This document shows, in pieces, positions 2,969 through 43,847 of a DNA stretch of 44,005 nt; within the stretch, counting starts at the first letter, position 1; every line of letters starts with the position of its first letter. Source of the DNA: Vectrevirus T205P4; the sequence record OZ035727.1, one strand, 5' to 3'. The translations under genes and the position numbers were made by a program. A model generated the notes under the pieces. That model was not told the origin of the DNA. It was given only the letters and a program-made list of their open reading frames with translations, and did no database searches.

Positions 2969-3313
2969 ATGCTTAACAAATACTTCAAGCGTAAAGAGTT
3001 CGCTTGCCGTTGTGGGTGCGGTACATCCACTGTTGATGCTGAATTACTACAGGTAGTCACAGATGTGCGTGAGCACTTTGGTTCTCCTGTAGTTATCACT
3101 TCGGGGCATCGCTGTGCTAAGCACAATGCTAATGTAGGAGGAGCTAAGAACTCCATGCATCTTACTGGTAAGGCTGCTGACATTAAGGTACGAGGTATCT
3201 TACCTTCTGATGTACATAAGTATCTTACTGATAAGTACCAAGGCAAGTATGGTATTGGTAAGTATACCTCCTTTACTCATATTGATGTACGTAACGGGTG
3301 TGCACGATGGTAG
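2969..3313 (+). CDS. Endolysin, zinc peptidase M15-type (L-alanyl-D-glutamate peptidase-like), about 115 aa
   Basis: Motifs SGHRCxxHN ... GGAxNSxH ... AADI ... H-x-D typical of M15 peptidases; ATG at 2969 with AAGGGGA RBS (the track ORF starts further upstream at 2915). Confidence 0.8.
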   Translation: MLNKYFKRKEFACRCGCGTSTVDAELLQVVTDVREHFGSPVVITSGHRCAKHNANVGGAKNSMHLTGKAADIKVRGILPSDVHKYLTDKYQGKYGIGKYTSFTHIDVRNGCARW

Positions 3314-3785: not shown

Positions 3786-3858
3786 GGTCTGCTTTAGTAA
3801 GCCTGACGCTACAAAATTAGGTTTGTATATTCTTTCGCTAGAACGCGGATATAATTAA
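3649..3858 (+). CDS. Putative o-spanin (Rz1-like outer-membrane lipoprotein), about 69 aa, GTG start
   Basis: AAGGAGG RBS 6 nt before GTG at 3649; signal peptide with lipobox-like LTTSGC; overlaps the 3564 ORF in the +1 frame, as in T7 18.5/18.7 (T7 Rz1 lipobox ISGC). Confidence 0.55.
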   Translation: MKRIRLVTILLIGSLTTSGCQQALPEKAMVKPLRPTLTEVYEVDDKVCFSKPDATKLGLYILSLERGYN

Positions 3859-3887
3859 TACATAGCTTTATGTATCAGTGTCTTACG

Positions 3888-3910
3888 ATTTACTGGACAC
3901 TATAGAAGAG
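3888..3910 (+). promoter_or_regulatory. Phage RNAP promoter P2 (ATTTACTGGACACTATAGAAGAG) driving the tailspike genes
   Basis: Near-perfect consensus copy 80 nt upstream of the tailspike 1 start. Confidence 0.8.
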
Positions 3911-3989
3911 GTAAGATAGCGCCGTTCTTTTGAGCGGCCTATTACTAGCCAATCTTCATAGGGAGGGTTGGAAAGTAATAGGAGATAGC

Positions 3990-5888
3990 ATGGCTAAATT
4001 AACCAAACCTAATACTGAAGGAATCTTGCATAAAGGACAATCTTTGTATGAGTACCTTGATGCGAGAGTTTTAACATCAAAGCCGTTTGGTGCTGTAGGT
4101 GACGCCACTACTGATGATACGGAGGTTATAGCTGCTTCATTAAACTCTCAGAAAGCTGTCACAATCTCAGACGGTGTATTCTCTAGCTCTGGTATTAATA
4201 GTAATTACTGTAACTTAGACGGTAGAGGTAGTGGGGTGCTAAGTCACCGTTCCAGTGCAGGTAACTACTTAGTATTTAACAATCCACGTACAGGTCGCTT
4301 AAGTAATATTACGGTAGAAAGTAATAAGGCGACTGATACAACTCAGGGACAGCAGGTATCTCTTGCTGGTGGAAGTGATGTTACTGTAAGTGACGTTAAC
4401 TTCTCAAACGTTAAAGGTACTGGTTTCAGTTTAATCGCATACCCTAATGATGCGCCACCTGATGGACTTATGATTAAAGGCATTCGAGGTAGCTATTCAG
4501 GCTATGCTACTAATAAGGCAGCCGGATGCGTACTTGCTGACTCCTCAGTTAACTCCCTCATAGATAACGTCATTGCTAAGAACTACCCTCAGTTCGGAGC
4601 AGTAGAGTTGAAAGGTACAGCCAGTTACAACATAGTCAGTAATGTTATAGGGGCAGATTGCCAGCATGTAACTTACAACGGCACCGAAGGGCCAATAGCT
4701 CCTTCTAATAACCTTATCAAGGGGGTGATGGCTAATAACCCTAAGTATGCAGCGGTTGTTGCAGGCAAAGGAAGTACGAACTTAATCTCAGACGTGCTTG
4801 TAGATTACTCAACTTCTGATGCTAGGCAGGCTCATGGTGTTACCGTAGAAGGGTCTGATAACGTCATAAATAATGTGCTTATGTCAGGATGTGATGGTAC
4901 TAACTCTTTAGGACAAGGGCAGACCGCTACAATTGCACGCTTTATAGGTACAGCTAATAACAACTATGCGTCTGTATTTCCTAGCTACAGTGCTACAGGT
5001 GTTATTACTTTCGAATCCGGCTCTACCCGTAACTTCGTAGAGGTAAAGCACCCTGGCAGGAGAAACGACCTTCTCAGTTCTGCTAGTACTATTGACGGTG
5101 CAGCTACTATTGACGGCACTAATAATAGTAACGTAGTACACGCACCTGCATTAGGGCAGTACATAGGTAGTATGTCAGGTAGGTTCGAATGGCGGATTAA
5201 GTCCATGTCACTCCCTTCAGGCGTTCTTACTTCTGCTGATAAGTACAGAATGCTTGGGGATGGTGCTGTATCATTAGCTGTAGGTGGGGGTACTTCTTCT
5301 CAAGTTCGCCTATTTACTTCTGATGGTACTTCTCGGACAGTGGCCCTCACCAACGGTAACGTGCGTCTTTCTACCAGTAGCACAGGCTATTTGCAGTTAG
5401 GTGCTGATGCAATGACCCCAGATAGTACTGGTACATACGCATTAGGTTCCGCCAGTCGAGCATGGTCTGGAGGTTTTACTCAAGCAGCATTCACTGTTAC
5501 ATCAGATGCTCGGTGTAAAACAGAACCTCTTACTATCTCAGATGCCTTACTGGATGCTTGGTCTGAAGTTGACTTTGTGCAGTTTCAGTATTTGGATCGT
5601 GTTGAGGAGAAGGGTGCAGACTCAGCTAGATGGCACTTTGGCATCATCGCTCAGCGAGCTAAGGAGGCTTTCGAACGCCACGGTATAGATGCACATCGCT
5701 ATGGCTTCTTGTGCTTCGACAGTTGGGATGATGTATACGAGGAAGATGCCAATGGCTCTCGTAAACTGATTACACCAGCAGGTTCCCGCTACGGTATTCG
5801 TTACGAGGAAGTGCTGATATTAGAGGCTGCGTTGATGCGGAGGACTATTAAGCGTATGCAGGAAGCACTAGCTTCCCTGCCTAAGTAA
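3990..5888 (+). CDS. Tailspike protein 1 (632 aa): beta-helix depolymerase with C-terminal intramolecular chaperone domain; K5-lyase/endosialidase-type architecture
   Basis: AGGAGA RBS before ATG at 3990 (MAKLTKPNTEG...); repetitive beta-helix-like middle; C-terminal SDARCK...RWHFGIIAQRAKEAFERHGID...YEEVLILEA resembles the autocleaving chaperone domain of endosialidase/K5 lyase tailspikes. Confidence 0.88.
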   Translation: MAKLTKPNTEGILHKGQSLYEYLDARVLTSKPFGAVGDATTDDTEVIAASLNSQKAVTISDGVFSSSGINSNYCNLDGRGSGVLSHRSSAGNYLVFNNPRTGRLSNITVESNKATDTTQGQQVSLAGGSDVTVSDVNFSNVKGTGFSLIAYPNDAPPDGLMIKGIRGSYSGYATNKAAGCVLADSSVNSLIDNVIAKNYPQFGAVELKGTASYNIVSNVIGADCQHVTYNGTEGPIAPSNNLIKGVMANNPKYAAVVAGKGSTNLISDVLVDYSTSDARQAHGVTVEGSDNVINNVLMSGCDGTNSLGQGQTATIARFIGTANNNYASVFPSYSATGVITFESGSTRNFVEVKHPGRRNDLLSSASTIDGAATIDGTNNSNVVHAPALGQYIGSMSGRFEWRIKSMSLPSGVLTSADKYRMLGDGAVSLAVGGGTSSQVRLFTSDGTSRTVALTNGNVRLSTSSTGYLQLGADAMTPDSTGTYALGSASRAWSGGFTQAAFTVTSDARCKTEPLTISDALLDAWSEVDFVQFQYLDRVEEKGADSARWHFGIIAQRAKEAFERHGIDAHRYGFLCFDSWDDVYEEDANGSRKLITPAGSRYGIRYEEVLILEAALMRRTIKRMQEALASLPK

Positions 5889-5895
5889 GCAACAG

Positions 5896-5918
5896 GCAGT
5901 GCGTAAGCACTGCTTTTC
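5896..5918 (+). terminator. Hairpin plus T-tract between the two tailspike genes
   Basis: GCAGTGC-GTAA-GCACTGC followed by TTTTCACGC. Confidence 0.5.
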
Positions 5919-5973
5919 ACGCAACTTTTCTTAAAGGTTATCATGGTGGTAGCCTTTCAGAAAAGGAGGTTAC

Positions 5974-7632
5974 ATGCTACAACGATTAAGTTCTTCACTA
6001 GTGAAGCACAAGAGCAAGCTAATAGGCGCTACCTATAGGCTGCTTGGTGATAAACTTTTAGAGCTAAATAGTGTATCAGATTTTGGTGCAATACCAAATC
6101 TTGAAACAGATAGTACTAATTCCATTCAAGCTGCAATTGATGCGACCCCGTCTGGTGGTACTCTAGGCTTCTATGGTGGGCCTTATAGATTTGGTACTGT
6201 TACAGTGGATAAACCAATTACACTAGTTGGAGATGCAGATTTGCAGTTTGAGTGCATTCGTATCAAGACAAGTAAGTTTCGTAGTTTCTTGACAGGAACA
6301 CTAACTGCTGCGAGATACGACAGTGCATGTCGTGCATTTCAAATCTTAGCCTATGAAGATGGGCAAGATTATGAGGACATCAAGGTACATGGTGCACGTT
6401 TCGAGGGTTTCTTCTATAACACAGACTTCCGAGGCCGCTCTTACGATGCGTCAGAAAGTGATCCTGCTAACAGAGTGGTTCGGGATACCTCTATTATGGG
6501 CTGTACTTCAGTTCAGCCTAAAGATGGTAAAGACAGAGGGCACTTTCAACACGTAGGTGTAACCAATGCCAAATGCATAGGTAACTCAACGTATGGCGGC
6601 AAGAATGCCACTTCTTATAACTTCATTAATGGTAATGGCTCTTTGGTGGTTATGGGTAACTATGACCATGACAATGAATATGGCTCATTAGAGATTGAGA
6701 ATAACAAGATAAGCTATGGTGTGGTTACTGGTAATATCTTCCATAAACAACTATGGATAGATGATACTAGCAACATTAATGTAATAGGTAACACCTGCAC
6801 AGATAGGATTTACATTACTGCACAATCTAACAACTCTGAGAACGTATCAGTAGTGGGAAACAATGTACCACGCATCTACGTCAGTAAGTTTGGTCAAAGC
6901 CCAACAGGTCGTCACCGTAACTTGACCATACGTGGTAATCATATCACTGGCAAGGATGTTCCTAACTGTATATTCTTAGACGATTCTGTGGATTCCGCTT
7001 CTATTGAGGGTAATGATTGTTATGGTGTATCTGGTGTTAGAGGCATAGCCATTACTCGTCATGCAGATGCTAACCATACAGTGCGTCATAATAACTTACA
7101 TGGCACTAACTTGCTCTTTAGTGGTTCGGGTGGCAAAGTTTATAGTTATGACAACTTTGATGTTGGAGTTGATGAATCACCTGTGACAGACAGAACTGAC
7201 GCAGTGCACATTGACAACCTTCTTCGTGTAAATGATGAGTACCTTGATTTGCCAGGAAAGTACCTATACAAATCTAAGTATACAAGAGACATTACACAAG
7301 GAGGCTCCACCACTATTGAGTTACCTATAACCACAAGTGGTACTTTGGCTTTTCGTGGTATTAGTTTATGGGTTCTTATCCGTAACACTTCTACTGGTAA
7401 CTTGTCTTCTTATCGTGTCGATGGAAGACATGCAGTAAGTGGTTCTTCTGTGACTGTTAGTTTTGGAGAGAAGTATGGGGTATTAGGGGTGAATACTGGT
7501 GATGTTACTATTAGTAATGATGCCTCTACGACTAATCTTATTCGTATCAAGGTAAGCAATGAGCATGTAAGTCAGACAATGCAGGTCACAGTTGTACCAG
7601 AGGTAACAAGCAGATTGGGAACTGAAGAGTAA
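5974..7632 (+). CDS. Tailspike protein 2 (552 aa), right-handed beta-helix (pectate-lyase-like) receptor-binding/depolymerase protein
   Basis: AAGGAGG RBS; repeated VxGN/NxxxG beta-helix rungs (VIGNTCTDRIYIT, VVGNNVPRIYVS, IRGNHITGKD); second spike gene directly after spike 1, as in K1-5/SP6-type phages. Confidence 0.85.
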   Translation: MLQRLSSSLVKHKSKLIGATYRLLGDKLLELNSVSDFGAIPNLETDSTNSIQAAIDATPSGGTLGFYGGPYRFGTVTVDKPITLVGDADLQFECIRIKTSKFRSFLTGTLTAARYDSACRAFQILAYEDGQDYEDIKVHGARFEGFFYNTDFRGRSYDASESDPANRVVRDTSIMGCTSVQPKDGKDRGHFQHVGVTNAKCIGNSTYGGKNATSYNFINGNGSLVVMGNYDHDNEYGSLEIENNKISYGVVTGNIFHKQLWIDDTSNINVIGNTCTDRIYITAQSNNSENVSVVGNNVPRIYVSKFGQSPTGRHRNLTIRGNHITGKDVPNCIFLDDSVDSASIEGNDCYGVSGVRGIAITRHADANHTVRHNNLHGTNLLFSGSGGKVYSYDNFDVGVDESPVTDRTDAVHIDNLLRVNDEYLDLPGKYLYKSKYTRDITQGGSTTIELPITTSGTLAFRGISLWVLIRNTSTGNLSSYRVDGRHAVSGSSVTVSFGEKYGVLGVNTGDVTISNDASTTNLIRIKVSNEHVSQTMQVTVVPEVTSRLGTEE

Positions 7633-7781
7633 TGCCATTAATCAAATCAGTTAAGCAAAGTGCTGTACGTCAGAACACAGAAGAACTCATTCAATCAGGA
7701 CGTGACCCTAAGCAAGCTTATGCGATTGCCAAGGATGTACAACGTCGTGCCTTGAAGAAACCTTCTGCATCTTCTGCGTAA
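7632..7781 (+). CDS. Hypothetical small protein, 49 aa
   Basis: TAATG stop/start overlap with tailspike 2; below track cutoff; no recognisable domain. Confidence 0.4.
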   Translation: MPLIKSVKQSAVRQNTEELIQSGRDPKQAYAIAKDVQRRALKKPSASSA

Positions 7782-7852
7782 GCAGGTTAATATCTTAGTA
7801 TAAACAAGGGCAGACCTAGGTTTGCTCTTAGTGTATTTACAATGGAGGTCTT

Positions 7853-7933
7853 ATGTATATACCTATGGAAGCAATAGTAGGTTGCCTATGCTTGTTGATA
7901 GGTTTCGTTATAGGCTTAATAGCAAAGCCTTAG
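7853..7933 (+). CDS. Hypothetical 26-aa hydrophobic micro-protein (MYIPMEAIVGCLCLLIGFVIGLIAKP)
   Basis: GGAGG RBS 5 nt upstream; a single predicted transmembrane helix; last ORF before the terminal non-coding region. Confidence 0.3.
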   Translation: MYIPMEAIVGCLCLLIGFVIGLIAKP

Positions 7934-7987
7934 TCCTGTACAAGGATTAACCAAAGTCAAAATTTTGATATGGTCGTGTGTGAGGTG

Positions 7988-8340
7988 TCTCGCCCTCGCC
8001 CTCGCCGGATTTCCCCCATACGGGTCCGCGCTGCGGTTGGCTTGGGAATTGGGCTGGGCTGGTCCGTCTTCAACCTGCTGCCGCAGGAAGCTCGACGGGT
8101 GGGCGAGGGCTTGCCTTGTACTCGCTTAGTGGTACACAAGGAGAACGCCTAGGAAGCGCTAGGGCACGCCTTAGTATTGGACAAGGTGATTGCCTTAGTT
8201 CAACCGCTTAGGGCTTACACGGGCCGTTTTAGGGCCATTCCTGAGCGTTTGACAGGGTGTGAGGGCGTGGGCTATCTGTTCGTTTCGCTACGCTTCACTC
8301 ACTGCTCCTCACTTCGTTCGTCGCTGCGGTAGCCTGATGT
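7988..8340. other. GC-rich non-coding block, candidate genome terminus / direct terminal repeat
   Basis: Clearly more GC-rich than the rest of the window by eye; begins TCTCGCCCTCGCCCTCGCC and contains TTTCCCCCATACGGG, resembling the T7 left-end motif TTCCCCCATAGGGGG; no credible ORF. Confidence 0.45.
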
Positions 8341-8700: not shown

Positions 8701-8729
8701 TTGACATAGGCAGTTAACAGGTATACATT
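8701..8729 (+). promoter_or_regulatory. Host sigma70-type early promoter (TTGACA-N17-TACATT)
   Basis: Perfect -35 hexamer, 17-bp spacer, 4/6 -10; position equivalent to T7 A1-A3 early promoters. Confidence 0.6.
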
Positions 8730-9364: not shown

Positions 9365-9393
9365 TTGACAGCCACGGCATACAAGGTTACATT
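9365..9393 (+). promoter_or_regulatory. Second host sigma70-type early promoter (TTGACA-N17-TACATT)
   Basis: Identical architecture to the promoter at 8701. Confidence 0.6.
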
Positions 9394-9745: not shown

Positions 9746-10075
9746 ATGGAACGCAATGCTAACGCTTACTACAACCTTCTGGCTGCAACTGTTGAAGCAT
9801 TCAACGAGCGTATTCAGTTTGATGAGATTCGCGAAGGTGATGATTACTCTGATGCACTACATGAGGTTGTAGACAGCAATGTTCCAGTTTATTACAGCGA
9901 AATCTTTACAGTGATGGCTGCTGATGGTATTGATGTTGATTTTGAGGATGCTGGTTTGATTCCTGACACGAAGGATGTAACCAAGATTCTACAAGCTCGC
10001 ATCTATGAAGCTCTTTATAATGATGTACCAAATGACAGCGATGTAGTTTGGTGTGAAGGCGAAGAAGAGGAATAA
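9746..10075 (+). CDS. ocr: Ocr-like anti-restriction DNA-mimic protein (T7 gp0.3 homolog), 109 aa
   Basis: [45 protein letters not shown] aligns with T7 Ocr [45 protein letters not shown]; acidic C-terminus; TGAGGA RBS. Confidence 0.88.
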   Translation: [109 protein letters not shown]

Positions 10076-10182
10076 TAAGATGGAAAGGCAATATAACTTC
10101 ATATTTTCAGACGGTGTGACCTTAAAATGTTCCTTGCGATTTGCGCAGATTCGTGAGGAAGTACTAGGAACTACATACAAGC

Positions 10183-10208
10183 TATTTAGATGACACTATA
10201 AGAGAAGA
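10183..10208 (+). promoter_or_regulatory. Variant phage-promoter-like sequence (ATTTAGATGACACTATAAGAGAAG)
   Basis: Matches the consensus upstream half, but the initiating region is ATAAGAG instead of ATAGAAG; may be weak or non-functional. Confidence 0.35.
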
Positions 10209-10269
10209 CTTAACAAGGCGTTGCTACGGTAGCGCCTGATTAAACTTTCACTTACTAGGAGTTGAGATT

Positions 10270-10455
10270 ATGAAAACCTTGATTGGATGCTTCTTGTTGG
10301 CTTCTCTTGCTCTGGCATTTACCGCTAAAGCTGGTTATGACGCTTATAAAGTAGAACAAGCCCAGCAAGACTGGGCCAAAAAGTTCAACTTGTGCAGCAA
10401 GAGCAACACCTACGAGTACTGCAACAAAACACTAAGACACTTATGGAAAGAGTAA
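10270..10455 (+). CDS. Small secreted protein, 61 aa, with signal peptide (MKTLIGCFLLASLALAFTAKA) and Cys pair
   Basis: AGGAG RBS; canonical signal peptide with AxA-like site; mature part about 40 aa. Confidence 0.6.
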   Translation: MKTLIGCFLLASLALAFTAKAGYDAYKVEQAQQDWAKKFNLCSKSNTYEYCNKTLRHLWKE

Positions 10456-10462
10456 CTAGCCT

Positions 10463-10484
10463 ATAGCCCACCTGAGTGGGCTAT
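10463..10484 (+). terminator. Hairpin (ATAGCCCAC-CTGA-GTGGGCTAT) after the secreted-protein gene
   Basis: 9-bp stem with 4-nt loop, followed by GTGATATTTA; weak U-tract. Confidence 0.4.
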
Positions 10485-10519
10485 GTGATATTTACTTACC
10501 ACTATATAAGGTGATTACT

Positions 10520-11404
10520 ATGACTACTGAAAACACCCTCGTGTCTGTCCGTGAAGCTGCAACCGCTGAAATCAAGCAACATTTAGACAATATCGGCACT
10601 TCTTACATCAAAGTAGGGGCTTGTCTGAATGAGTTACGCGGAGACTTTGAAGGTCAAAAAGAGTTTTTAGCCTATGTTGAAGCAGAGTTTGCCATTAAGA
10701 AGGCACAATGTTACAAGCTGATGAGTGTAGCCCGTGTCTTTGAAGGCGATGATCGCTTTAAAGGCGTGGCGATGCGTGTAATGCTGGCGCTTGTTCCTTT
10801 CGCTGATGAAAATATCATCATGGAGAAAGCCGCAGAACTTGCCGCAGCGGGCAAGCTGGACACTAACGCCGTGAACGCCCTGATTGAGCCTAAGAAAGAG
10901 CCAAAGTCTGAGACGGTACAATCCAAGGCTGAGCCTGTAAAACCGCAGGAGAACGCGACTGCGGCCGCAGAATCCCAGGAAACGCAAGCGCCGCAGGAAG
11001 TGCCGCCAGCAAGTGAGTCGGATGACGACAAATCAGCACCGTGGGAAGAGGAAAGCAAGCCGGAAGCGCCAAAGGCCGCGCCACTGGACAACACGGCTAA
11101 CACTGAAAACGCCGCTATGACTGGCCTACTGGCACAAATTAAGGCACTGACTGAGCAATTACAGGCAGCTAACGACCGCATCGCCGCCCTAACCAGTGCA
11201 CGTGAAAGCAAGAAGGCAGCCGCGCCTATGCTTCCCCAATTCAAATCTAAATGTTTCTATGCTCGCTTGGGTTTAAGCGCTGAGGAGGCAACGAAGAAAA
11301 CAGCAGTTAACAAGGCACGCCGCGAACTGGTTAAGCTAGGCTATGGTGAAGGCCATGAAGCATGGGCCTCAATCTCTGAGGCAGTAGAAGAATTAACTAA
11401 GTAA
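10520..11404 (+). CDS. Hypothetical early protein, about 294 aa, with long acidic Pro/Glu/Ala-rich low-complexity linker
   Basis: AAGGTG RBS before ATG at 10520; sits where T7 has the gene 0.7 kinase, immediately upstream of the RNAP gene, but I see no kinase motifs. Confidence 0.7.
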   Translation: MTTENTLVSVREAATAEIKQHLDNIGTSYIKVGACLNELRGDFEGQKEFLAYVEAEFAIKKAQCYKLMSVARVFEGDDRFKGVAMRVMLALVPFADENIIMEKAAELAAAGKLDTNAVNALIEPKKEPKSETVQSKAEPVKPQENATAAAESQETQAPQEVPPASESDDDKSAPWEEESKPEAPKAAPLDNTANTENAAMTGLLAQIKALTEQLQAANDRIAALTSARESKKAAAPMLPQFKSKCFYARLGLSAEEATKKTAVNKARRELVKLGYGEGHEAWASISEAVEELTK

Positions 11405-11467: not shown

Positions 11468-14095
11468 ATGCAAGACTTACACGCTATTCAACTTCAACTT
11501 GAAGAAGAAATGTTTAACGGCGGTATCCGTCGCTTTGAAGCGGACCAACAACGCCAGATTGCATCCGGTAATGAATCAGACACGGCATGGAATCGCCGCT
11601 TATTGTCTGAGTTAATCGCGCCAATGGCTGAAGGCATTCAGGCATACAAGGAAGAGTATGAAGGTAAAAGAGGCCGTGCACCGCGTGCATTGGCTTTCAT
11701 TAACTGCGTTGAAAACGAAGTGGCAGCATATATCACGATGAAAATCGTTATGGACATGCTGAATACAGACGTTACCTTACAAGCCATCGCTATGAATGTA
11801 GCAGACCGCATCGAGGACCAAGTACGTTTTAGCAAGCTGGAAGGTCACGCCGCCAAATACTTTGAGAAAGTTAAGAAGTCACTTAAGGCAAGTAAGACTA
11901 AATCATATCGCCATGCGCACAACGTAGCGGTCGTGGCTGAGAAGTCTGTATCTGACCGTGACGCGGACTTTTCCCGCTGGGAGGCATGGCCCAAAGATAC
12001 CTTGTTGCAAATAGGTATGACACTGCTAGAAATCTTGGAGAATAGCGTATTCTTTAACGGGCAACCTGTTTTCCTCCGCACCTTGCGCACTAATGGCGGC
12101 AAACACGGTGTTTACTACTTACAGACCAGCGAACACGTTGGCGAGTGGATAACTGCATTTAAGGAACATGTAGCGCAGCTTAGTCCTGCCTATGCGCCTT
12201 GCGTCATCCCTCCGCGTCCGTGGGTGTCGCCTTTTAATGGTGGATTCCACACTGAGAAGGTAGCAAGTCGTATCCGTCTTGTTAAAGGCAACCGCGAGCA
12301 CGTACGCAAGCTCACTAAGAAGCAAATGCCAGCCGTTTACAAGGCTGTTAATGCTTTGCAGGCAACTAAATGGCAGGTTAACAAGGAAGTATTGCAGGTT
12401 GTTGAAGATGTAATTCGTCTCGACCTTGGTTATGGTGTGCCTTCCTTTAAGCCGCTTATCGACCGCGAGAACAAGCCAGCTAATCCAGTGCCGTTAGAGT
12501 TCCAGCACCTGCGAGGCCGTGAACTTAAAGAGATGCTAACGCCGGAACAATGGCAAGCCTTCATCAACTGGAAAGGCGAATGTACCAAGCTGTATACCGC
12601 TGAAACTAAGCGCGGCAGCAAGTCGGCGGCAACCGTTCGCATGGTCGGGCAGGCCCGTAAATACAGCCAGTTTGACGCAATATACTTCGTGTATGCACTG
12701 GATAGCCGTTCGCGCGTTTATGCGCAATCTAGCACGCTCTCGCCGCAATCAAACGACCTAGGCAAGGCGTTACTGCGTTTCACCGAAGGGCAGCCTCTAA
12801 ATAGCTCTGAGGCGCTTAAGTGGTTTTTGGTGAACGGGGCGAATAACTGGGGTTGGGATAAGAAAACCTTTAACGTGCGCACCGCTAACGTGCTGGATGG
12901 TGAATTCCAAGACATGTGCCGCGACATTGCAGCCGACCCGCTGACCTTCACTCAATGGGTGAATGCAGATTCACCTTATGGCTTTCTTGCGTGGTGCTTT
13001 GAATACGCGCGTTATCTGGATGCACTGGATGAAGGAACACAAGATAAATTCATGACGCATTTACCAGTACATCAAGATGGTAGTTGTTCTGGTATCCAGC
13101 ACTATAGCGCGATGTTACGCGATGAAGTAGGTGCGAAAGCGGTAAACCTCAAGCCGTCAGACGAGCCGCAAGATATTTATGGGGCCGTTGCGCAAGTAGT
13201 TATCCAGAAAAACTATGCTTACATGAATGCAGATGATGCAGAAACTTTCACATCTGGAAGCGTAACACTTACAGGTGCAGAACTGCGTAGCATGGCTGGC
13301 GCGTGGGATATGATAGGTATCACTCGCGGCTTAACCAAAAAGCCGGTAATGACCTTGCCTTACGGCTCCACCCGCTTAACCTGCCGTGAGTCAGTGATTG
13401 ATTATATCGTTGATTTGGAAGAAAAAGAGGCACAACGAGCTATTGCAGAAGGGCGGACGGCGAATCCTGTTCACCCTTTTGATAATGACCGCAAAGATTA
13501 CCTGACACCGGGCGCAGCTTACAACTATATGACTGCTTTAATTTGGCCTTCTATCTCTGAGGTTGTTAAAGCTCCTATAGTGGCGATGAAAATGATTCGC
13601 CAGCTTGCACGATTCGCAGCTAAAAGAAACGAAGGGCTAGAGTACACCTTACCTACTGGTTTCATCTTGCAACAAAAGATAATGGCTACCGACATGCTAC
13701 GCGTATCCACTTGCTTGATGGGTGAAATCAAGATGAGTCTACAGATTGAGACTGATGTAGTGGATGAAACGGCAATGATGGGCGCTGCCGCTCCTAACTT
13801 TGTTCACGGGCATGATGCTAGTCATCTCATCCTGACTGTATGTGACCTCGTTGACAAGGGCATTACATCTATCGCAGTCATCCATGATTCCTTTGGTACT
13901 CATGCAGGCCGTACAGCAGACCTGCGGGATAGCTTAAGGGCAGAAATGGTGAAGATGTATCAAGGTCGTAATGCTCTGCAAAGCCTGTTAGATGAGCATG
14001 AGGAGCGCTGGTTAGTAGACACCGGAATCCAAGTGCCAGAGCAAGGGGAGTTTGACCTTAACGAGATATTAGTATCTGACTATTGCTTTGCATAA
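11468..14095 (+). CDS. Single-subunit DNA-dependent RNA polymerase, SP6-type, 875 aa
   Basis: N-terminus [32 protein letters not shown]... and C-terminus ...[10 protein letters not shown]...DYCFA match my recollection of SP6 RNAP; conserved catalytic region [18 protein letters not shown]. Confidence 0.97.
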
Positions 14096-18346: not shown

Positions 18347-20879
18347 TTGGAAAGAATACGGTAAAAACCGGATCCTAGTTATGGACGCCGAAGCAAAAGG
18401 CTTGCTTGATGCCATACGCTATGGTCATCGTGAAGATGTGCACATCATTTGCTGCATGGATTTACTCACCACTGAGGAGTTCCTATTCTTCGACCCATAT
18501 GAGATGCGTGACCCTGAGGCAAGGGAACGCCTGAAGGAGTGGGAAGGCCATCAAGACGGAACCTTGGTTGATGGTGTTAACTTCCTAAAGCACTGTGAAG
18601 CCATCGTCTCACAGAACTTCCTAGGCTATGACGGGCTTCTCTTTGAGAAAGCCTTCCCTGACATCTGGAAAGGATTTAACTACACCGAGAGGCGCGGCAA
18701 TGGCAGACTACGTGCTGACCTGTGTCCGGTACGCGTCATGGATACGCTGGTCATGAGTCGCCTGTTAAACCCAGATAGACGCCTTCCTCCGCAAGCATAT
18801 GCCAAAGGCATGGGTAACGTCGCCCCTCACTCAATTGAGGCGCACGGCATCCGTATAGGCCGCTATAAACCAGAGAACGAGGACTGGTCTAAACTAACTG
18901 ACCACATGGTTCACCGTGTACGTGAAGACGTGGCAATTGGTCGTGACCTTTTCCTATGGCTTTACAACGGAGAGTGGACGGAGCACAAACGCCGTGGCGT
19001 GAATAAACGTACTGGCCTAGGTATTGAGACAGCCTTCCACATGGAGTCCATTGTGGCGCTGGAGATGAGCCGTCAGGCCGAGCGCGGGTTCCGTCTGGAC
19101 ATCGACAAGGCTTTGGCCCGATGCGAAGAATTGGACGCTAAAATTGACGAGACAGTCGCAGCGTTCCGCCCTCACATGCCTATGCGTATCAAGTCTAAAC
19201 CTTTTAAACCGGAAGAAAAGAATGAAGTATGCCAACGCGCAAATGAGTATGGAGCTAGCAACAATATACCTACTGTCCTTGACCCCTCACACTTTCTTCA
19301 TGCCGAGAGACGAGGAGATCGCAAGACAGTATGGAGTGTCACTACTAAGTCTGGTGATTGGTCGGCTAGTGTCAAGAAAGACTTCCCTCACCTTAGAGGA
19401 AACCGTAATGACACGCCAAGCATCAAGTGGATTGGCGCTTACTCGCCTGTTACTTTCGAAGAGATTCCCTTGGGTAACAGGGATACAGTTAAGCAAGTGC
19501 TCTATGATTATGGATGGAAAGGTGTTGAATTTAACGATACCGAGCAAGCTCATCTCGATGAGCACGGAGTGTTACCCAAACCTTGGAGTGGTAAGATAAA
19601 TGAAAAGTCCCTTACTTTATGGCAAGAAAGAGCCGCACGTGAAGGTAAAACAGTCCCTGATTGGTGCTTGGGTATCGCTGCATGGTACATACTCGTATCC
19701 CGTCGTGGTCAGATACTCAACCGTGGTGACGTTGAAGCCTTCAACGAGAAGGGAACGTGGCCCTCGCAGGCTGGTGTACGAAAGTGTCGCGGCCTTGTAC
19801 CGGTAGCATTCAACAAGGAGCTAGGAATCAATGCGCAGCAATACTACGAGAGGTACGGATATTGGCCTACGTCTGACAAAGATGACGGAGAGTGGCGTGT
19901 TCCAGCTGTTGCTATTAGTATTGGCACTTCTACGTTCCGTATGCGTCATCGTAACGTGGTTAATATTCCTGCCCGTGGCTTGTATCCTTTACGTGATTTA
20001 TTCATAGCAGGGAAAGGCAAGCTAATCCTTGGTTGTGACGGTGCAGGTCTTGAACTGCGTGTCCTGTCTCACTTCATGAATGACCCTGAGTACCAAGAGA
20101 TTGTACTGCACGGTGATATTCATACGCATAACCAGATGAAGGCTGGTCTTCCTAAGCGTGATATGGCGAAGACGTTTATATACGCCTTCCTCTATGGCTC
20201 TGGTATAGCCAACCTTGCAGCAGTATGTGGTGTTACTGAGGAGGAAATGAAGGAAGTTGTGGCAAGATTCGAGATTGAACTGCCGTCTCTTGCACGTCTT
20301 CGTGAGAATGTTATCGCACAAGGTAACAAGTTTGGCTACCTGCAAGCACCTGATGGGCATTGGGGTCGCATCCGCATGTCTGGTGGTGAACTTAAAGAGC
20401 ACACGATGCTTAACGTATTACTCCAGATGACTGGCTCTTTGTGTATGAAATATGCATTAGTAAAGGCATTTGCAGTAATGCGCAAGGAAGGTGTAGCCTT
20501 GGATGCTATGGGAAATCCTTGTGGTGTGGCTAACGTGCATGATGAAATCCAGATGGAAGTTCCTGAAGAGGAGGTCTTGTATCTTAACTACGACCTACCT
20601 TTCACCTTAGATGGGTTCGAAACAGAGAAGGCTGCCGTGAAAGCAGTGTTCGATGCAGAGGAGAAACGTGTTCATGTGGATTCTGAAGGACGTATGTGGT
20701 CTGCTGCAAACCTCGTCAGTGTTGATGCTGATGCTGGTGTATTGCATTGCCAGCGCCGTTATCACCGTGCAGGGCATATCATTGCCGACGCCATGACTTG
20801 GGCTGGTCAGTATCTGAAGATGCGTTGCCCGATGGCAGGAGAATATAAGATTGGCACAAGTTGGAAGGAAACACACTGA
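18333..20879 (+). CDS. DNA polymerase, family A (T7 gp5-like), about 848 aa
   Basis: N-terminal 3'-5' exonuclease motif (VMDAEAKGL), long polymerase domain, size close to SP6-type DNAP; start at ATG 18333 (MLNVDWKEYG). Confidence 0.95.
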   Translation: MLNVDWKEYGKNRILVMDAEAKGLLDAIRYGHREDVHIICCMDLLTTEEFLFFDPYEMRDPEARERLKEWEGHQDGTLVDGVNFLKHCEAIVSQNFLGYDGLLFEKAFPDIWKGFNYTERRGNGRLRADLCPVRVMDTLVMSRLLNPDRRLPPQAYAKGMGNVAPHSIEAHGIRIGRYKPENEDWSKLTDHMVHRVREDVAIGRDLFLWLYNGEWTEHKRRGVNKRTGLGIETAFHMESIVALEMSRQAERGFRLDIDKALARCEELDAKIDETVAAFRPHMPMRIKSKPFKPEEKNEVCQRANEYGASNNIPTVLDPSHFLHAERRGDRKTVWSVTTKSGDWSASVKKDFPHLRGNRNDTPSIKWIGAYSPVTFEEIPLGNRDTVKQVLYDYGWKGVEFNDTEQAHLDEHGVLPKPWSGKINEKSLTLWQERAAREGKTVPDWCLGIAAWYILVSRRGQILNRGDVEAFNEKGTWPSQAGVRKCRGLVPVAFNKELGINAQQYYERYGYWPTSDKDDGEWRVPAVAISIGTSTFRMRHRNVVNIPARGLYPLRDLFIAGKGKLILGCDGAGLELRVLSHFMNDPEYQEIVLHGDIHTHNQMKAGLPKRDMAKTFIYAFLYGSGIANLAAVCGVTEEEMKEVVARFEIELPSLARLRENVIAQGNKFGYLQAPDGHWGRIRMSGGELKEHTMLNVLLQMTGSLCMKYALVKAFAVMRKEGVALDAMGNPCGVANVHDEIQMEVPEEEVLYLNYDLPFTLDGFETEKAAVKAVFDAEEKRVHVDSEGRMWSAANLVSVDADAGVLHCQRRYHRAGHIIADAMTWAGQYLKMRCPMAGEYKIGTSWKETH

Positions 20880-20995
20880 TGGATAGGCTTGACATTGTTT
20901 GCCTGTTCTTCACTTTCTTTCTTACACTCCTTATGCTTGCTTGTTATGGGAGTGTGAGACTAGATGTACCTGATGAAGAAGAGGGTTACGACTAA
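20879..20995 (+). CDS. Small membrane protein, 38 aa, hydrophobic core plus acidic C-terminus (DVPDEEEGYD)
   Basis: TGATG overlap with DNAP stop; below track cutoff. Confidence 0.35.
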   Translation: MDRLDIVCLFFTFFLTLLMLACYGSVRLDVPDEEEGYD

Positions 20996-21093
20996 TGCAA
21001 ACTGCTTTTATTATTCTTGGTATCGTATTATTTATGGTAGTACTCTGGGCCTTCTCTGGCATTGACCCGGATTGTGATGGTAACTACGACTGA
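20995..21093 (+). CDS. Small membrane protein, 32 aa, hydrophobic core plus acidic C-terminus (DPDCDGNYD)
   Basis: TAATG overlap with previous small ORF; same architecture. Confidence 0.35.
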   Translation: MQTAFIILGIVLFMVVLWAFSGIDPDCDGNYD

Positions 21094-21497: not shown

Positions 21498-21875
21498 ATG
21501 TCAATGGTAACTACTCTGGTATTTGTAGCTCAATACTTTCGTGGTCTGGCTAATAAGTTCAAATCCAAGGCTATCAAAGCTATTGAGTCTCGCATCGAGG
21601 CAGTACAGGCAGAGCAAGTTAAAGTTGAAGAACATCGTAGTTCTCAAATGATTGACTGTCATAACCGCTACTATGCATCTCGTGATGAACTAAATGCACG
21701 TCAAGTCAAAGAGGTAGAAGATATGCTGGCACGTCACCAGCAAGAGCGTGACAGCCTGAAAGCTGAATTTGAAGAGAACAAGGCATCAATTGCTCTTGTA
21801 AATCAAGCTGCATCTGACAGCCTGAAGAAAGAGATTGTTATGCTGGAAATAGAACTGGACAACTTGACTAAATAA
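21498..21875 (+). CDS. Hypothetical membrane-anchored coiled-coil protein, 125 aa
   Basis: AGGAGA RBS; N-terminal hydrophobic segment then charged heptad-like region. Confidence 0.6.
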   Translation: MSMVTTLVFVAQYFRGLANKFKSKAIKAIESRIEAVQAEQVKVEEHRSSQMIDCHNRYYASRDELNARQVKEVEDMLARHQQERDSLKAEFEENKASIALVNQAASDSLKKEIVMLEIELDNLTK

Positions 21876-21881
21876 GGGGTT

Positions 21882-22181
21882 ATGATGGAAGAAGTGATTC
21901 AAGCTAAACATGTAGGTATCATCTTTCGTGATCTAGAGCAGCGTAAAGTTGCAGGTTACACTCGTCTGGCTAAAGAATACGATACAGCAATCACTACTGT
22001 GGAACAAGCAGATGCCTATCGTGGTCCAGAGTTTACTCAAGGTGAAACTTGTCATCAATTGAGCCTTTCACTTTGTGACACTATGGCTAGTGTAAATGTA
22101 CAAGAGGTTGAAGATGGTGAATGTGTTAGTTATGTCTACCCTCTCGACACTATTGCACGTATTAAGGTAGTTCATAAGTAA
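21882..22181 (+). CDS. Hypothetical protein, 99 aa
   Basis: AAGGGG RBS; tandem ATG ATG. Confidence 0.55.
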   Translation: MMEEVIQAKHVGIIFRDLEQRKVAGYTRLAKEYDTAITTVEQADAYRGPEFTQGETCHQLSLSLCDTMASVNVQEVEDGECVSYVYPLDTIARIKVVHK

Positions 22182-22202
22182 TTACTGGACACTATAGAAC
22201 AA
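22180..22202 (+). promoter_or_regulatory. Phage RNAP promoter P7 (AATTACTGGACACTATAGAACAA)
   Basis: Consensus-like, with AAC in place of AAG after the start site. Confidence 0.7.
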
Positions 22203-35941: not shown

Positions 35942-36687
35942 TGGCTATAGGTTCAGCCGTTATGGCTGGTATGTCTTCTATTGGTAGTATGTTTGCAGGT
36001 AGCGGTACAGCAGCCGCTGCTGGTGGTACTGCCGCAGCAGCAGGAGGGACAGCCGCCGCAGGTGGCGGAGGTTTGCTTGGCTCCCTTGGTAGTTTCTTAG
36101 GAGGTTCTTCTGCTGGCTTCTCTAATGCAGGACTGCTTAGTGCAGGTATGCAAGGTCTTGGTCTTCTAGGCAATCTTTTTGGTGGAAGTGATGAAGCCAA
36201 AGCTATGAAGAAAGCTCAGGAGGAGCAATGGCGGCAGCAGTTAATTGCTACACAAGAAGCATATAAGACAGTGGCAGATGCAGAACGCTCTGCTGCTAAA
36301 CAGTATCATGCGGATGCAATAAGCAATCAGGCTTCACTGCTACAGCAAAGAGCGCAGGTTGCACTACTTGCAGGTGCAACTGGCACTGGTGGTAACTCTA
36401 TATCTTCTATGCTGAATGACTTAGCAGCAGAGGGCGGGAGGAACCAGAGTACAATTATTGATAACTATGAGAATCAGAAGATTAACTTCACCAATCAGCT
36501 TAAGTCTATCCAGCGAGGTGGACAGATGCAGATGCGTGAGTTTAAGAAGCCTTCTGCCGTGAGCACCTTGGTGCAAGGTATACCGAGTCTGGCATCTGCC
36601 TATGTAACAGGTAGTAAGTCCGGCATGGCTTTAGGTAAAGCTTTAACTGATTCTCGTACATATTCATCTGGAACAAGAGGTATTTAA
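35941..36687 (+). CDS. Internal virion protein (gp14-like, Gly/Ala-rich N-terminus), about 249 aa
   Basis: AGGAGGG RBS; first of three internal-core genes. Confidence 0.7.
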   Translation: MAIGSAVMAGMSSIGSMFAGSGTAAAAGGTAAAAGGTAAAGGGGLLGSLGSFLGGSSAGFSNAGLLSAGMQGLGLLGNLFGGSDEAKAMKKAQEEQWRQQLIATQEAYKTVADAERSAAKQYHADAISNQASLLQQRAQVALLAGATGTGGNSISSMLNDLAAEGGRNQSTIIDNYENQKINFTNQLKSIQRGGQMQMREFKKPSAVSTLVQGIPSLASAYVTGSKSGMALGKALTDSRTYSSGTRGI

Positions 36688-42885: not shown

Positions 42886-43847
42886 TGAGTTATACTTTCA
42901 CAGAACATATAGCCAACGGTACGCAAGTAACCTATCCCTTTAGATTTGCTGGCAGGGATAAAGGCTATCTTCGTGCCTCAGATGTGATAGTGGAATCTCT
43001 TCAAGGTAACACTTGGATTGAGGTTACATCTGGCTGGCAATTAACTGGTACGCATCAAATCACTTTTGATGTAGCACCTGTTGCAGGTTTGAAGTTCCGT
43101 ATTCGAAGGGAAGTACAAAAGGAATATCCATACGCTGAGTTTGACCGTGGTGTTACCTTGGATATGAAGTCTTTAAATGGCTCTTTCATTCATATACTGG
43201 AGATTACACAGGAGTTACTTGATGGGTTTTATCCAGAAGGATACTTCATTAAACAGAATGTAAGCTGGGGCGGCAATAAGATTACTGATTTGGCTGATGG
43301 CACAAATCCGGGAGATGCAGTAAATAAGGGGCAGCTTGATGCCATCGACAAGAAGCATACAGATTGGAACGCCAAACAGGACATTGAGATTGCTGGCCTT
43401 AAGGCTGGTATGACTTCTGGTATTGCGCACAGAACTGTTCCTTGGTACACGATAGCCCAAGGTGGTGAGATTTCCGTAAAACCACCTTATGAATTTCAAG
43501 ATGCACTAGTTTTCCTTAATGGGGTATTGCAGCACCAAATTGTAGGCGCATACTCTATAAGCAACAACACTATCACTTTCGCAGAGCCGCTTGTGGCTGG
43601 TACAGAGGTGTATGTGTTGATTGGTAGTCGTGTGGCTACATCTGAACCTAATATTCAGTTAGAGTTGAACTTTGACTTAGTAGAAGGCCAACAAGTAGTA
43701 CAGATTGGCTCTGCATTTAAGTACATTGAGGTCTACCTTGATGGATTATTACAACCTAAACTTGCTTATCAGGTAGACGGTGACATTGTTACTTTCTCAG
43801 AGGGAGTGCCAGAATGCCGGATGACTGCTAAGATTATCACAGAATAA
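42885..43847 (+). CDS. Tail fiber adaptor protein (homolog of the T7 gp17 N-terminal tail-attachment domain), about 320 aa
   Basis: N-terminal region parallels the T7 gp17 tail-binding domain in pattern; lacks a receptor-binding domain, consistent with an adaptor that carries the two tailspikes. Confidence 0.85.
   Translation: MSYTFTEHIANGTQVTYPFRFAGRDKGYLRASDVIVESLQGNTWIEVTSGWQLTGTHQITFDVAPVAGLKFRIRREVQKEYPYAEFDRGVTLDMKSLNGSFIHILEITQELLDGFYPEGYFIKQNVSWGGNKITDLADGTNPGDAVNKGQLDAIDKKHTDWNAKQDIEIAGLKAGMTSGIAHRTVPWYTIAQGGEISVKPPYEFQDALVFLNGVLQHQIVGAYSISNNTITFAEPLVAGTEVYVLIGSRVATSEPNIQLELNFDLVEGQQVVQIGSAFKYIEVYLDGLLQPKLAYQVDGDIVTFSEGVPECRMTAKIITE

Follow-up and report, generated by a model that had tools for sequence, protein, structure and literature searches.

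RESULTS

Gene 5 and its neighborhood

The DNA analyzed here, a stretch of 44,005 nucleotides (Vectrevirus T205P4, sequence record OZ035727.1) that we refer to as the window, is the complete, circularly permuted genome of a Vectrevirus, a K1-5/K1E-group phage within the SP6 branch of the T7 supergroup. The ORF of interest, hereafter gene 5, occupies positions 10270 to 10455 of the plus strand, on which all other features described below are also located. It starts with the ATG at 10270, ends with the TAA at 10453 to 10455 and encodes 61 amino acids (MKTLIGCFLLASLALAFTAKAGYDAYKVEQAQQDWAKKFNLCSKSNTYEYCNKTLRHLWKE), so that direct reading confirmed exactly the coordinates and length proposed for it by a first-pass annotation. 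Reading of the sequence also identified a Shine-Dalgarno motif, AGGAG, at 10257 to 10261, 8 nucleotides before the ATG. The surrounding 1.8 kb shares 94% identity with phages mutPK1A2 and K1-5.

Upstream of gene 5 are an ocr-like anti-restriction gene (9746 to 10075, 109 amino acids; Pfam PF08684, E = 9.3e-31; PHROG 2568) and gene 4 (10080 to 10193), a conserved 37-amino-acid ORF (PHROG 11746, E = 1.9e-29) that was near-identical in most of 26 SP6-like loci, including all those of E. coli, Salmonella and Klebsiella phages. The first-pass annotation had placed gene 5 after ocr; ocr is indeed upstream, but the two genes are not directly adjacent, since gene 4 lies between them. Downstream follow gene 6 (10520 to 11404, 294 amino acids, function unknown; PHROG 4571, E = 3e-129) and the gene of the phage single-subunit RNA polymerase (11468 to 14095, 875 amino acids), which was taken from the ORF list and is annotated as RNA polymerase in K1-5. 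Genes 4 and 6 form the left and right borders of what we call the slot. Elsewhere in the window, an internal virion (ejectosome) protein of 982 amino acids (36687 to 39635) carries a T4-lysozyme-type domain at residues 776 to 910 (E = 2.2e-10). This domain belongs to PF00959, the Pfam family that also includes the T4 gp5 lysozyme, and the K1-5 counterpart is annotated as a "lysozyme domain-containing protein."

The window ORF is the orthologue of gene 5 of phage K1-5: the two proteins are 98% identical, both genes sit between genes 4 and 6, and we found no difference that would separate them. Annotated genes in 13 phage records, K1-5 gene 5 among them, encode proteins with 98 to 100% identity to the window protein. 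Over its full length (residues 1 to 61 of 61), the protein matched the profile of the uncharacterized PHROG 20059 (function unknown; E = 2.8e-47). No Pfam family was matched, and neither PADLOC nor a sequence search of the PDB (E ≤ 10) gave a meaningful match; across PHROG, Pfam and PADLOC, no family of known function was recovered. The gene 5 product belongs to PHROG 20059 and falls outside Spackle, Llp/Cor and every Pfam family. The literature searched contained no study of gene 5, whose annotation has not gone beyond "hypothetical protein" since publication of the K1-5 genome.

Compared to the ULINTec6 allele (79% identical), gene 5 showed 25 synonymous and 15 nonsynonymous differences, corresponding to a dN/dS of 0.05, and a value of 0.09 was obtained against the locus L005, with synonymous sites being saturated in this analysis. 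Such values indicate that the reading frame is under strong purifying selection. The GC content of gene 5 (42.5%) does not deviate from that of the genome (45.2%). Its sequence conservation marks gene 5 as a genuine gene that selection maintains in this K1-5-like coliphage.

Transcription signals and RNA structures

A consensus scan identified two candidate sigma-70 early promoters (both TTGACA-17-TACATT), at 8701 to 8729 (10 of 12 positions matched) and at 9365 to 9393; such sites were not enriched over shuffled sequences. Upstream of gene 5, and overlapping the stop codon of gene 4, is a consensus match to an SP6/K1-5-type phage RNA polymerase promoter (ATTTAGATGACACTATAAGAGA, 10184 to 10205), with A instead of G at +1. 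This consensus occurred 12 times in the window, versus 0.01 matches expected by chance, and GACACTATAAG was invariant in 7/7 aligned leader sequences, including two from genomes with an empty slot. An apparent second promoter at 10489 to 10512 was discarded, as it actually consists of the 3' arm of the lower stem described below and the ribosome-binding site of gene 6. Assignment of gene 5 to the early region was upheld in part. Early expression is suggested by its location between the two sigma-70-like sites and the downstream gene of the phage RNA polymerase, but gene 5 is probably not purely early, since it also follows the conserved phage-type promoter. This promoter suggests that transcription of gene 5 continues after the phage polymerase has been made.

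The 5' leader is predicted to fold into a stem-loop (10210 to 10243; minimum free energy of -20.5 kcal/mol, z = -3.3) that shows compensatory changes at 9 of its 16 pairs among relatives. At the other end of the gene, positions 10450 to 10497 fold into a bipartite RNA structure (-20.2 kcal/mol, z = -4.4). The final codon and the stop codon form part of its lower stem, which an internal loop separates from an upper stem of 10 bp (10462 to 10485) with a tetraloop. Covariation was seen at 5 of its 17 pairs, and the middle base of the TAA/TGA stop codon covaries with its 3' partner. The hairpin reported after the ORF by the first-pass annotation is therefore real and covarying, but it is a bipartite, RNase III-like structure and not a plain terminator. 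RNase III sites of T7 have the shape of bipartite stems between early genes. Like those of the T7 early region (R0.3, R0.5, R1 and others), the structure after gene 5 is situated between early genes and combines upper and lower stems with an internal loop, and some of its pairs covary. No Rfam family matched the 3' element, which by its resemblance to the T7 sites may be RNase III-like. We read it as a probable processing or stabilizing structure, because a strong terminator at this place would block transcription of the RNA polymerase gene by the host polymerase.

Gene 5 is predicted to encode a small exported protein

The predicted signal peptide (MKTLIGCFLLASLALAFTAKA; codons at 10270 to 10332, dN/dS of 0.11) has the n/h/c layout of Sec-dependent leaders cleaved by signal peptidase I. 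K2 provides the charged n-region, residues 4 to 18 form a hydrophobic core with a mean Kyte-Doolittle value of 2.34 over 15 residues (about 7 to 15 being usual for an h-region), and the c-region has small residues at -3 and -1, both Ala (A19-K20-A21|G22), which places the predicted cleavage between A21 and G22. The same layout was found in all gene 5 homologues. At the level of sequence rules, this bears out the canonical signal peptide previously proposed, and together with the comparative evidence it makes the call well supported. That gene 5 encodes a 61-amino-acid precursor with a leader of the Sec/signal peptidase I type is, by the same rules and comparisons, strongly supported. Furthermore, in one slot allele (allele F, found in L031/P0009), the 21-residue leader of gene 5 is joined to an unrelated mature domain. 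Homology between the two ends at the cleavage site and returns at the last codon, suggesting that the leader is a separable export module.

Cleavage would leave a mature peptide (GYDAY...HLWKE, encoded at 10333 to 10452) with a predicted mass of 4.9 kDa and a pI of 8.7. The expected mature part of roughly 40 residues with two cysteines proved to be exactly 40 residues long, with Cys at positions 42 and 51.

Initial sequence searches among 5.8 billion sequences recovered six clusters, all near-identical to the gene 5 protein, while a profile search of 1.84 billion representatives returned only its own cluster and one match confined to the signal peptide. Divergent homologues in the same genomic position came to light when the conserved 3' RNA element was used to scan metagenome contigs and a profile search was then run. 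These were 58-amino-acid "G-type" proteins (e.g., G3A1_059 of vB_EcoP-G3A1) and a 69-amino-acid variant (P0014), for which the position between genes 4 and 6 was confirmed. A further homologue is gp07 of Pectobacterium phage PP1 (77 amino acids), which weakly matches PHROG 20059 (E = 0.005). At 29 to 33% identity, the homologues have a hydrophobic leader ending in A-x-A and followed by [GS]-Y-D, and they also keep a Gln, a Trp, an aromatic residue and a pair of Cys with the spacing CX8-10C. Y23, C42 and C51 are invariant across the family, and exactly two Cys are present in each mature part of the predicted periplasmic alleles A, G and F and of PP1 gp07. The structure of an exported protein that had been claimed for gene 5 is well supported by its sequence features and more strongly by these comparisons, in which the A-x-A|[GS]-Y-D junction and the Cys pair are nearly all that the divergent homologues have in common.

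A first AlphaFold2 run on the gene 5 precursor was of low confidence (pLDDT of 62), and a Foldseek search with this model returned nothing. Based on a nine-sequence alignment, AlphaFold2 predicted for the mature part a helix-loop-helix (mean pLDDT of 85.4), with helices at mature residues 2 to 21 and 27 to 39 and a loop between them. The model places one Cys where helix 1 ends and the other in the opening turn of helix 2, so that the two could form a DsbA-made disulfide that staples the hairpin. Foldseek searches of the PDB and BFVD with the mature-domain model identified no significant neighbor; the best matches, thionins (E = 6.6), were not significant and were set aside. Taken together, gene 5 very probably sends a 40-residue, disulfide-stapled helical hairpin to the periplasm.

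Neither 5,426 E. coli genomes nor 185,579 genomes representing one bacterial species each yielded a match to gene 5, and a host origin of gene 5 was rejected on this basis. As far as these sequence collections reach, the gene 5 family is small and phage-only.

Gene 5 is one allele of a polymorphic slot

What the first-pass annotation had omitted is that gene 5 is one allele of a polymorphic, dispensable cassette. When K1-5, K1E, ULINTec6 and the window were aligned, unrelated coding sequences were found between near-identical flanks. We then surveyed the slot in 26 IMG/VR loci retrieved via gene 6, in metagenome loci and in phage records. In relatives, the slot contained one of at least six unrelated small ORFs with predicted targeting to the membrane or periplasm, or no ORF at all. 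The allele A family, predicted to be periplasmic, comprises gene 5, the G-type proteins, P0014 and PP1 gp07. Allele B (K1E gp5, 75 amino acids) has an N-terminal membrane span followed by a basic stretch; the allele C family (51 to 63 amino acids) is found in Klebsiella and Salmonella phages, including SP6; allele D (41 amino acids) has a C-terminal membrane span, and allele E (65 amino acids) an N-terminal one. Allele F (88 amino acids in P0009) carries the signal peptide of A, with its first 21 residues and the underlying DNA being those of allele A. The slot is empty in L006, L008, L009 and PDP21P3. Every allele contains a strongly hydrophobic segment of 15 residues, and according to the positive-inside rule, the domain of alleles B and E probably stays on the cytoplasmic side, while D is predicted to be tail-anchored. 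Such differences in predicted topology make it unlikely that one common periplasmic mechanism serves the whole slot. Among the 60 best-matching phage records, typed by span lengths and tblastn, 13 carried A, 32 carried B, 14 carried D and 1 carried another allele.

Genomes with an empty slot retain the promoter and the leader. The 3' structure is absent from them, indicating that the mobile unit consists of the ribosome-binding site, the ORF and the 3' structure. To relate the slot to the backbone, we cut the window into 400-bp tiles and scored these against 15 whole genomes, of which four carry allele A, five B and five D, and one has an empty slot. Only the tiles covering the slot separated A from non-A genomes, and T205P5, whose backbone was overall the closest to the window among the 15 (89%), carries allele D. 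We conclude that the slot allele is exchanged by recombination. No partner locus that co-varies with the slot allele was found genome-wide in this set, and the lysozyme-domain gene occurred in two sequence types that are distributed by lineage and not by slot allele. An apparent pairing of an A' subtype with the 85%-type lysozyme domain was dismissed, as the two genomes concerned, ULINTec6 and Mt1B1_P10, are 94.6% identical and represent one lineage.

These properties resemble those of phage morons and accessory hotspots. Like them, gene 5 is short, is present, absent or replaced in otherwise collinear genomes, comes with a ribosome-binding site and a 3' RNA structure of its own, and shows an assortment that does not follow the backbone. 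In contrast to morons, it has an ordinary GC content and a promoter and leader that belong to the backbone, only the ribosome-binding site, the ORF and the 3' structure traveling together, and it resides in a virulent and not a temperate phage. Gene 5 as a genuine, dispensable accessory gene is strongly supported by these observations.

DISCUSSION

We consider it highly probable that gene 5 is a real exported mini-protein gene within a polymorphic cassette. As for its function, the first-pass annotation suggested superinfection exclusion or envelope remodeling, a reasonable guess by analogy to other exported early phage proteins. The explanation that we favor, though tentatively as a whole, is exclusion at the level of the envelope. 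According to it, the gene 5 protein would be made within minutes of infection, at first through read-through by the host RNA polymerase and subsequently by the phage polymerase. Cleavage after A21 would release a basic helix-loop-helix mini-protein of 40 residues and 4.9 kDa into the periplasm, where the two invariant Cys would receive a DsbA-made disulfide that staples the hairpin. The mature peptide would then act in the cell envelope: much as Spackle of T4 does, it would bind a component of the periplasm on which genome ejection depends, such as the lysozyme domain of an incoming ejectosome protein, and the infected cell would thereby be protected against secondary infection by related phages. 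In the window phage, the lysozyme domain of the 982-amino-acid ejectosome protein is a conceivable periplasmic target.

The model for this proposal is T4 Spackle, which is expressed early with a signal peptide and is a small alpha-helical protein of the periplasm containing a single disulfide (PMC7677548). Spackle (Sp, the product of gene 61.3) is a periplasmic inhibitor of the tail lysozyme gp5, and we checked its sequence against the structures 6x6o and 7cn6. Both proteins are encoded in the early region of a virulent coliphage, and both are small, with a cleavable N-terminal export signal, an all-alpha mature part, one Cys pair and a mature chain starting with G-Y-D, these traits being predicted in the case of gene 5. 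What our analysis yielded for gene 5 in this respect is a helical hairpin predicted by AlphaFold2 and two invariant Cys, and the window phage also has a virion protein with a PF00959 domain. The two nevertheless differ: the mature part of gene 5 has 40 residues and two helices, whereas that of Spackle is a helical bundle of 75 residues, and gene 5 is polymorphic and often absent. BLASTP of the gene 5 protein against Spackle gave no alignment at E ≤ 100, and hhalign yielded a probability of 5.3% and covered the leader only. Homology to Spackle was ruled out by these two comparisons, and we treat the common G-Y-D start as a coincidence. Gene 5 may at most work like Spackle. A second comparison is with T5 Llp and phi80 Cor, which mediate receptor-blocking exclusion and, as predicted for gene 5, are small exported early phage proteins acting in the envelope. 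These are lipoproteins, however, whereas the LIGC motif of gene 5 is too close to the N terminus and is not conserved in homologues.

Several side observations touch on exclusion. Gene 5 lies upstream of the RNA polymerase gene and close to ocr, with a phage promoter before it, and the phage has a virion protein with a PF00959 lysozyme domain; both fit such a function. On the other side are the many relatives without any gene in the slot, the differing topologies of the slot alleles, a lysozyme-domain gene whose co-variation with the slot allele is no more than common ancestry explains, and the lack of Spackle homology, of a significant structural neighbor and of a characterized family. No superinfection-exclusion phenotype in SP6-like phages is on record in the literature searched.

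In a broader version, which we regard as rather doubtful, the slot would be a polymorphic locus of interchangeable envelope-acting competition determinants that exclude rivals or neutralize envelope defenses and are swapped by recombination at conserved RNA-structure flanks. The A family would then give the T7 supergroup its first Spackle-like inhibitor of ejection in the periplasm, with an unrelated scaffold, a hairpin of 40 residues stapled by a disulfide.

Alternatively, the exported mini-protein could bind a periplasmic or inner-membrane protein of the host (sensor kinases, proteases, peptidoglycan or division enzymes and the capsule-export machinery being examples) and tune host physiology rather than block other phages. 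The evidence for export and for an early position applies equally here, and gene 5 is dispensable and variable, as a fine-tuning function would be. The small early genes 0.4 to 0.6 of T7, which are positional analogues of gene 5, act on host FtsZ and MreB, and small periplasmic regulators with a Cys pair, such as MgrB, inhibit sensor kinases; both precedents favor such a takeover of the host envelope. Nevertheless, we think it somewhat unlikely. Gene 5 shows no similarity to known host-targeting phage proteins, a conserved host target would not obviously favor replacement by unrelated proteins, and the alleles do not track the type of host, as phages isolated on a single strain, APEC 45, carry either A or D.

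The neighborhood of the slot raises another possibility, namely that it is an anti-defense hotspot whose small proteins neutralize envelope-associated defenses of the host or of prophages, or abortive-infection effectors. The slot adjoins anti-restriction genes, ocr in the window, while in PP1 its neighbor is annotated as a SAM-dependent methyltransferase that by eye resembles a T3-type SAM hydrolase. Moreover, presence/absence polymorphism and free assortment are typical of anti-defense accessory genes, and all slot alleles are predicted to be membrane targeted. However, few defense targets are known that a soluble periplasmic 40-mer could reach, and gene 5 has neither a match to known anti-defense families nor a PADLOC-related signal. 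Counter-defense is therefore unlikely in our estimation.

A different objection concerns topology only, in that the N-terminal segment might remain uncleaved and gene 5 might encode a type II signal-anchor mini-protein or a lipoprotein instead of a free periplasmic peptide. A third Cys, C7, is located in the signal peptide, and L-I-G-C at residues 4 to 7 fits the lipobox pattern [LVI][ASTVI][GAS]C. With only MKT in front of it, this motif does not make a lipobox, three residues being too few for a lipoprotein signal, and C7 is missing from the G-type and PP1 homologues, all of which keep the A-x-A motif. An uncleaved anchor would agree with the resemblance of slot alleles C, B and E to such anchors and with the first AlphaFold2 model, a single helix from residue 5 to residue 44; against it, the hydrophobic core of about 14 residues is short for a membrane span. 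We thus hold an uncleaved N terminus to be quite unlikely.

Still less can be said for gene 5 as a periplasmic antiholin-like protein that, like T4 RI, would sense or delay lysis. RI is likewise a small protein made from early times onward, and it has a periplasmic domain as well as an N-terminal segment for export or anchoring. Yet, gene 5 is distant from the lysis genes on the K1-5 map, did not co-vary with the holin/endolysin region in 15 genomes and matched only PHROG families of unknown function, and lysis inhibition has, to our knowledge, not been reported for SP6-like phages, making a role in lysis timing very unlikely. Finally, that gene 5 is a chance ORF or a decaying remnant without function, as its very short length, the empty slot of some relatives and two frameshifted 54-amino-acid variants in read-assembled contigs might suggest, is scarcely credible given the selection analysis (dN/dS of 0.05 to 0.1, with synonymous sites saturated), the good Shine-Dalgarno sequence and the retention of the Cys, the Tyr and the cleavage motif in homologues at 29% identity.

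The function of gene 5 is directly testable by swapping the slot, since A, B, D and the empty slot exist as natural, isogenic-like variants. Should gene 5 only fine-tune infection, it would be an ordinary accessory ORF. Vectreviruses such as K1-5, K1E and their relatives are used against encapsulated E. coli, both in therapy and as model phages. Their competition in mixed infections and phage cocktails, or their ability to cope with envelope-level defenses, could plausibly be determined by a dispensable early gene of this kind, the product of which is a tiny protein predicted to reach the periplasm and can be replaced by other members of a set of at least six unrelated membrane proteins. At 40 residues, a disulfide hairpin of this kind would rank among the smallest phage effectors that act outside the cytoplasm.

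Genes and promoter bordering the slot

The variable slot that holds gene 5 is bordered by two conserved early genes. Gene 4 (window 10080-10193; PHROG 11746) encodes a protein of only 37 aa, MERQYNFIFSDGVTLKCSLRFAQIREEVLGTTYKLFR, that is near-invariant among the E. coli, Salmonella and Klebsiella phages of the SP6-like group, with variable genes adjoining it. This degree of conservation is striking for so tiny an early protein. On the other side, gene 6 (window 10520-11404; PHROG 4571) encodes a conserved early protein of 294 aa, for which public annotations conflict, naming it variously "andolysin," "late transcription factor VLTF-4" and "putative protein kinase."

Upstream of both gene 6 and the phage RNA polymerase gene is a conserved promoter of the phage type (window 10184-10205), whose +1 position is A; it is retained also in genomes with an empty slot. 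Since this promoter precedes the polymerase gene, the phage polymerase could transcribe its own gene, and positive feedback on that gene is thus possible.

Variants and annotation of gene 5 relatives

One slot allele, the 88-aa protein P0009 (L031, positions 3001-3267; ENA ERZ27298611, contig k141_1816924), has the signal peptide of gene 5 followed by an unrelated, coiled-coil-like mature domain with a CX10C pair at its end. Two 54-aa gene 5 variants from Logan assemblies, P0005 and P0006, match over approximately the first 34 to 37 residues and diverge thereafter in a frameshift-like manner; they represent either assembly errors or natural pseudogenes. We also found a gene 5 homologue on the minus strand of phage Mt1B1_P10 (MT496971.1, positions 42997-43179), where the annotated coding sequence (43017-43181) lies on the plus strand. 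The real gene 5 homologue is consequently absent from the annotation.

Variable regions and tiny open reading frames elsewhere in the genome

Among 15 relatives, the genome varies most in the tail-spike region (window 3801-8200). The proteins encoded there include one of 652 aa that carries a Peptidase_S74 chaperone domain and a pectate-lyase-like one of 552 aa. The segment at 21601-22200 was dimorphic, and the version present in the window was shared by all four of the other genomes with the gene 5 family in the slot (allele A) and by 4 of the 10 genomes with allele B or D, an association with allele A that was not significant at these genome counts.

Two adjacent tiny open reading frames of 38 and 32 aa (window 20879-20995 and 20995-21093) follow the DNA polymerase gene, as positional counterparts of K1-5 genes 13.5 and 14. 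In each product, one segment is strongly hydrophobic and the tail is acidic, with GYD or NYD at the end.

Anti-restriction genes next to the slot

The anti-restriction gene ocr (window 9746-10075) is dimorphic in close relatives, being either of the K1-5 type (109 to 111 aa) or of a T7-like type (122 to 124 aa). Its type is partly linked to the allele in the adjoining slot, probably merely because of proximity. In Pectobacterium phage PP1 (L030, positions 2281-2956), the gene before the family member gp07 carries the annotation SAM-dependent methyltransferase. On visual inspection, however annotated, it resembles a T3-type SAM hydrolase and not ocr. If it does encode a SAM hydrolase, the slot would still adjoin an anti-restriction gene, even one of another kind.
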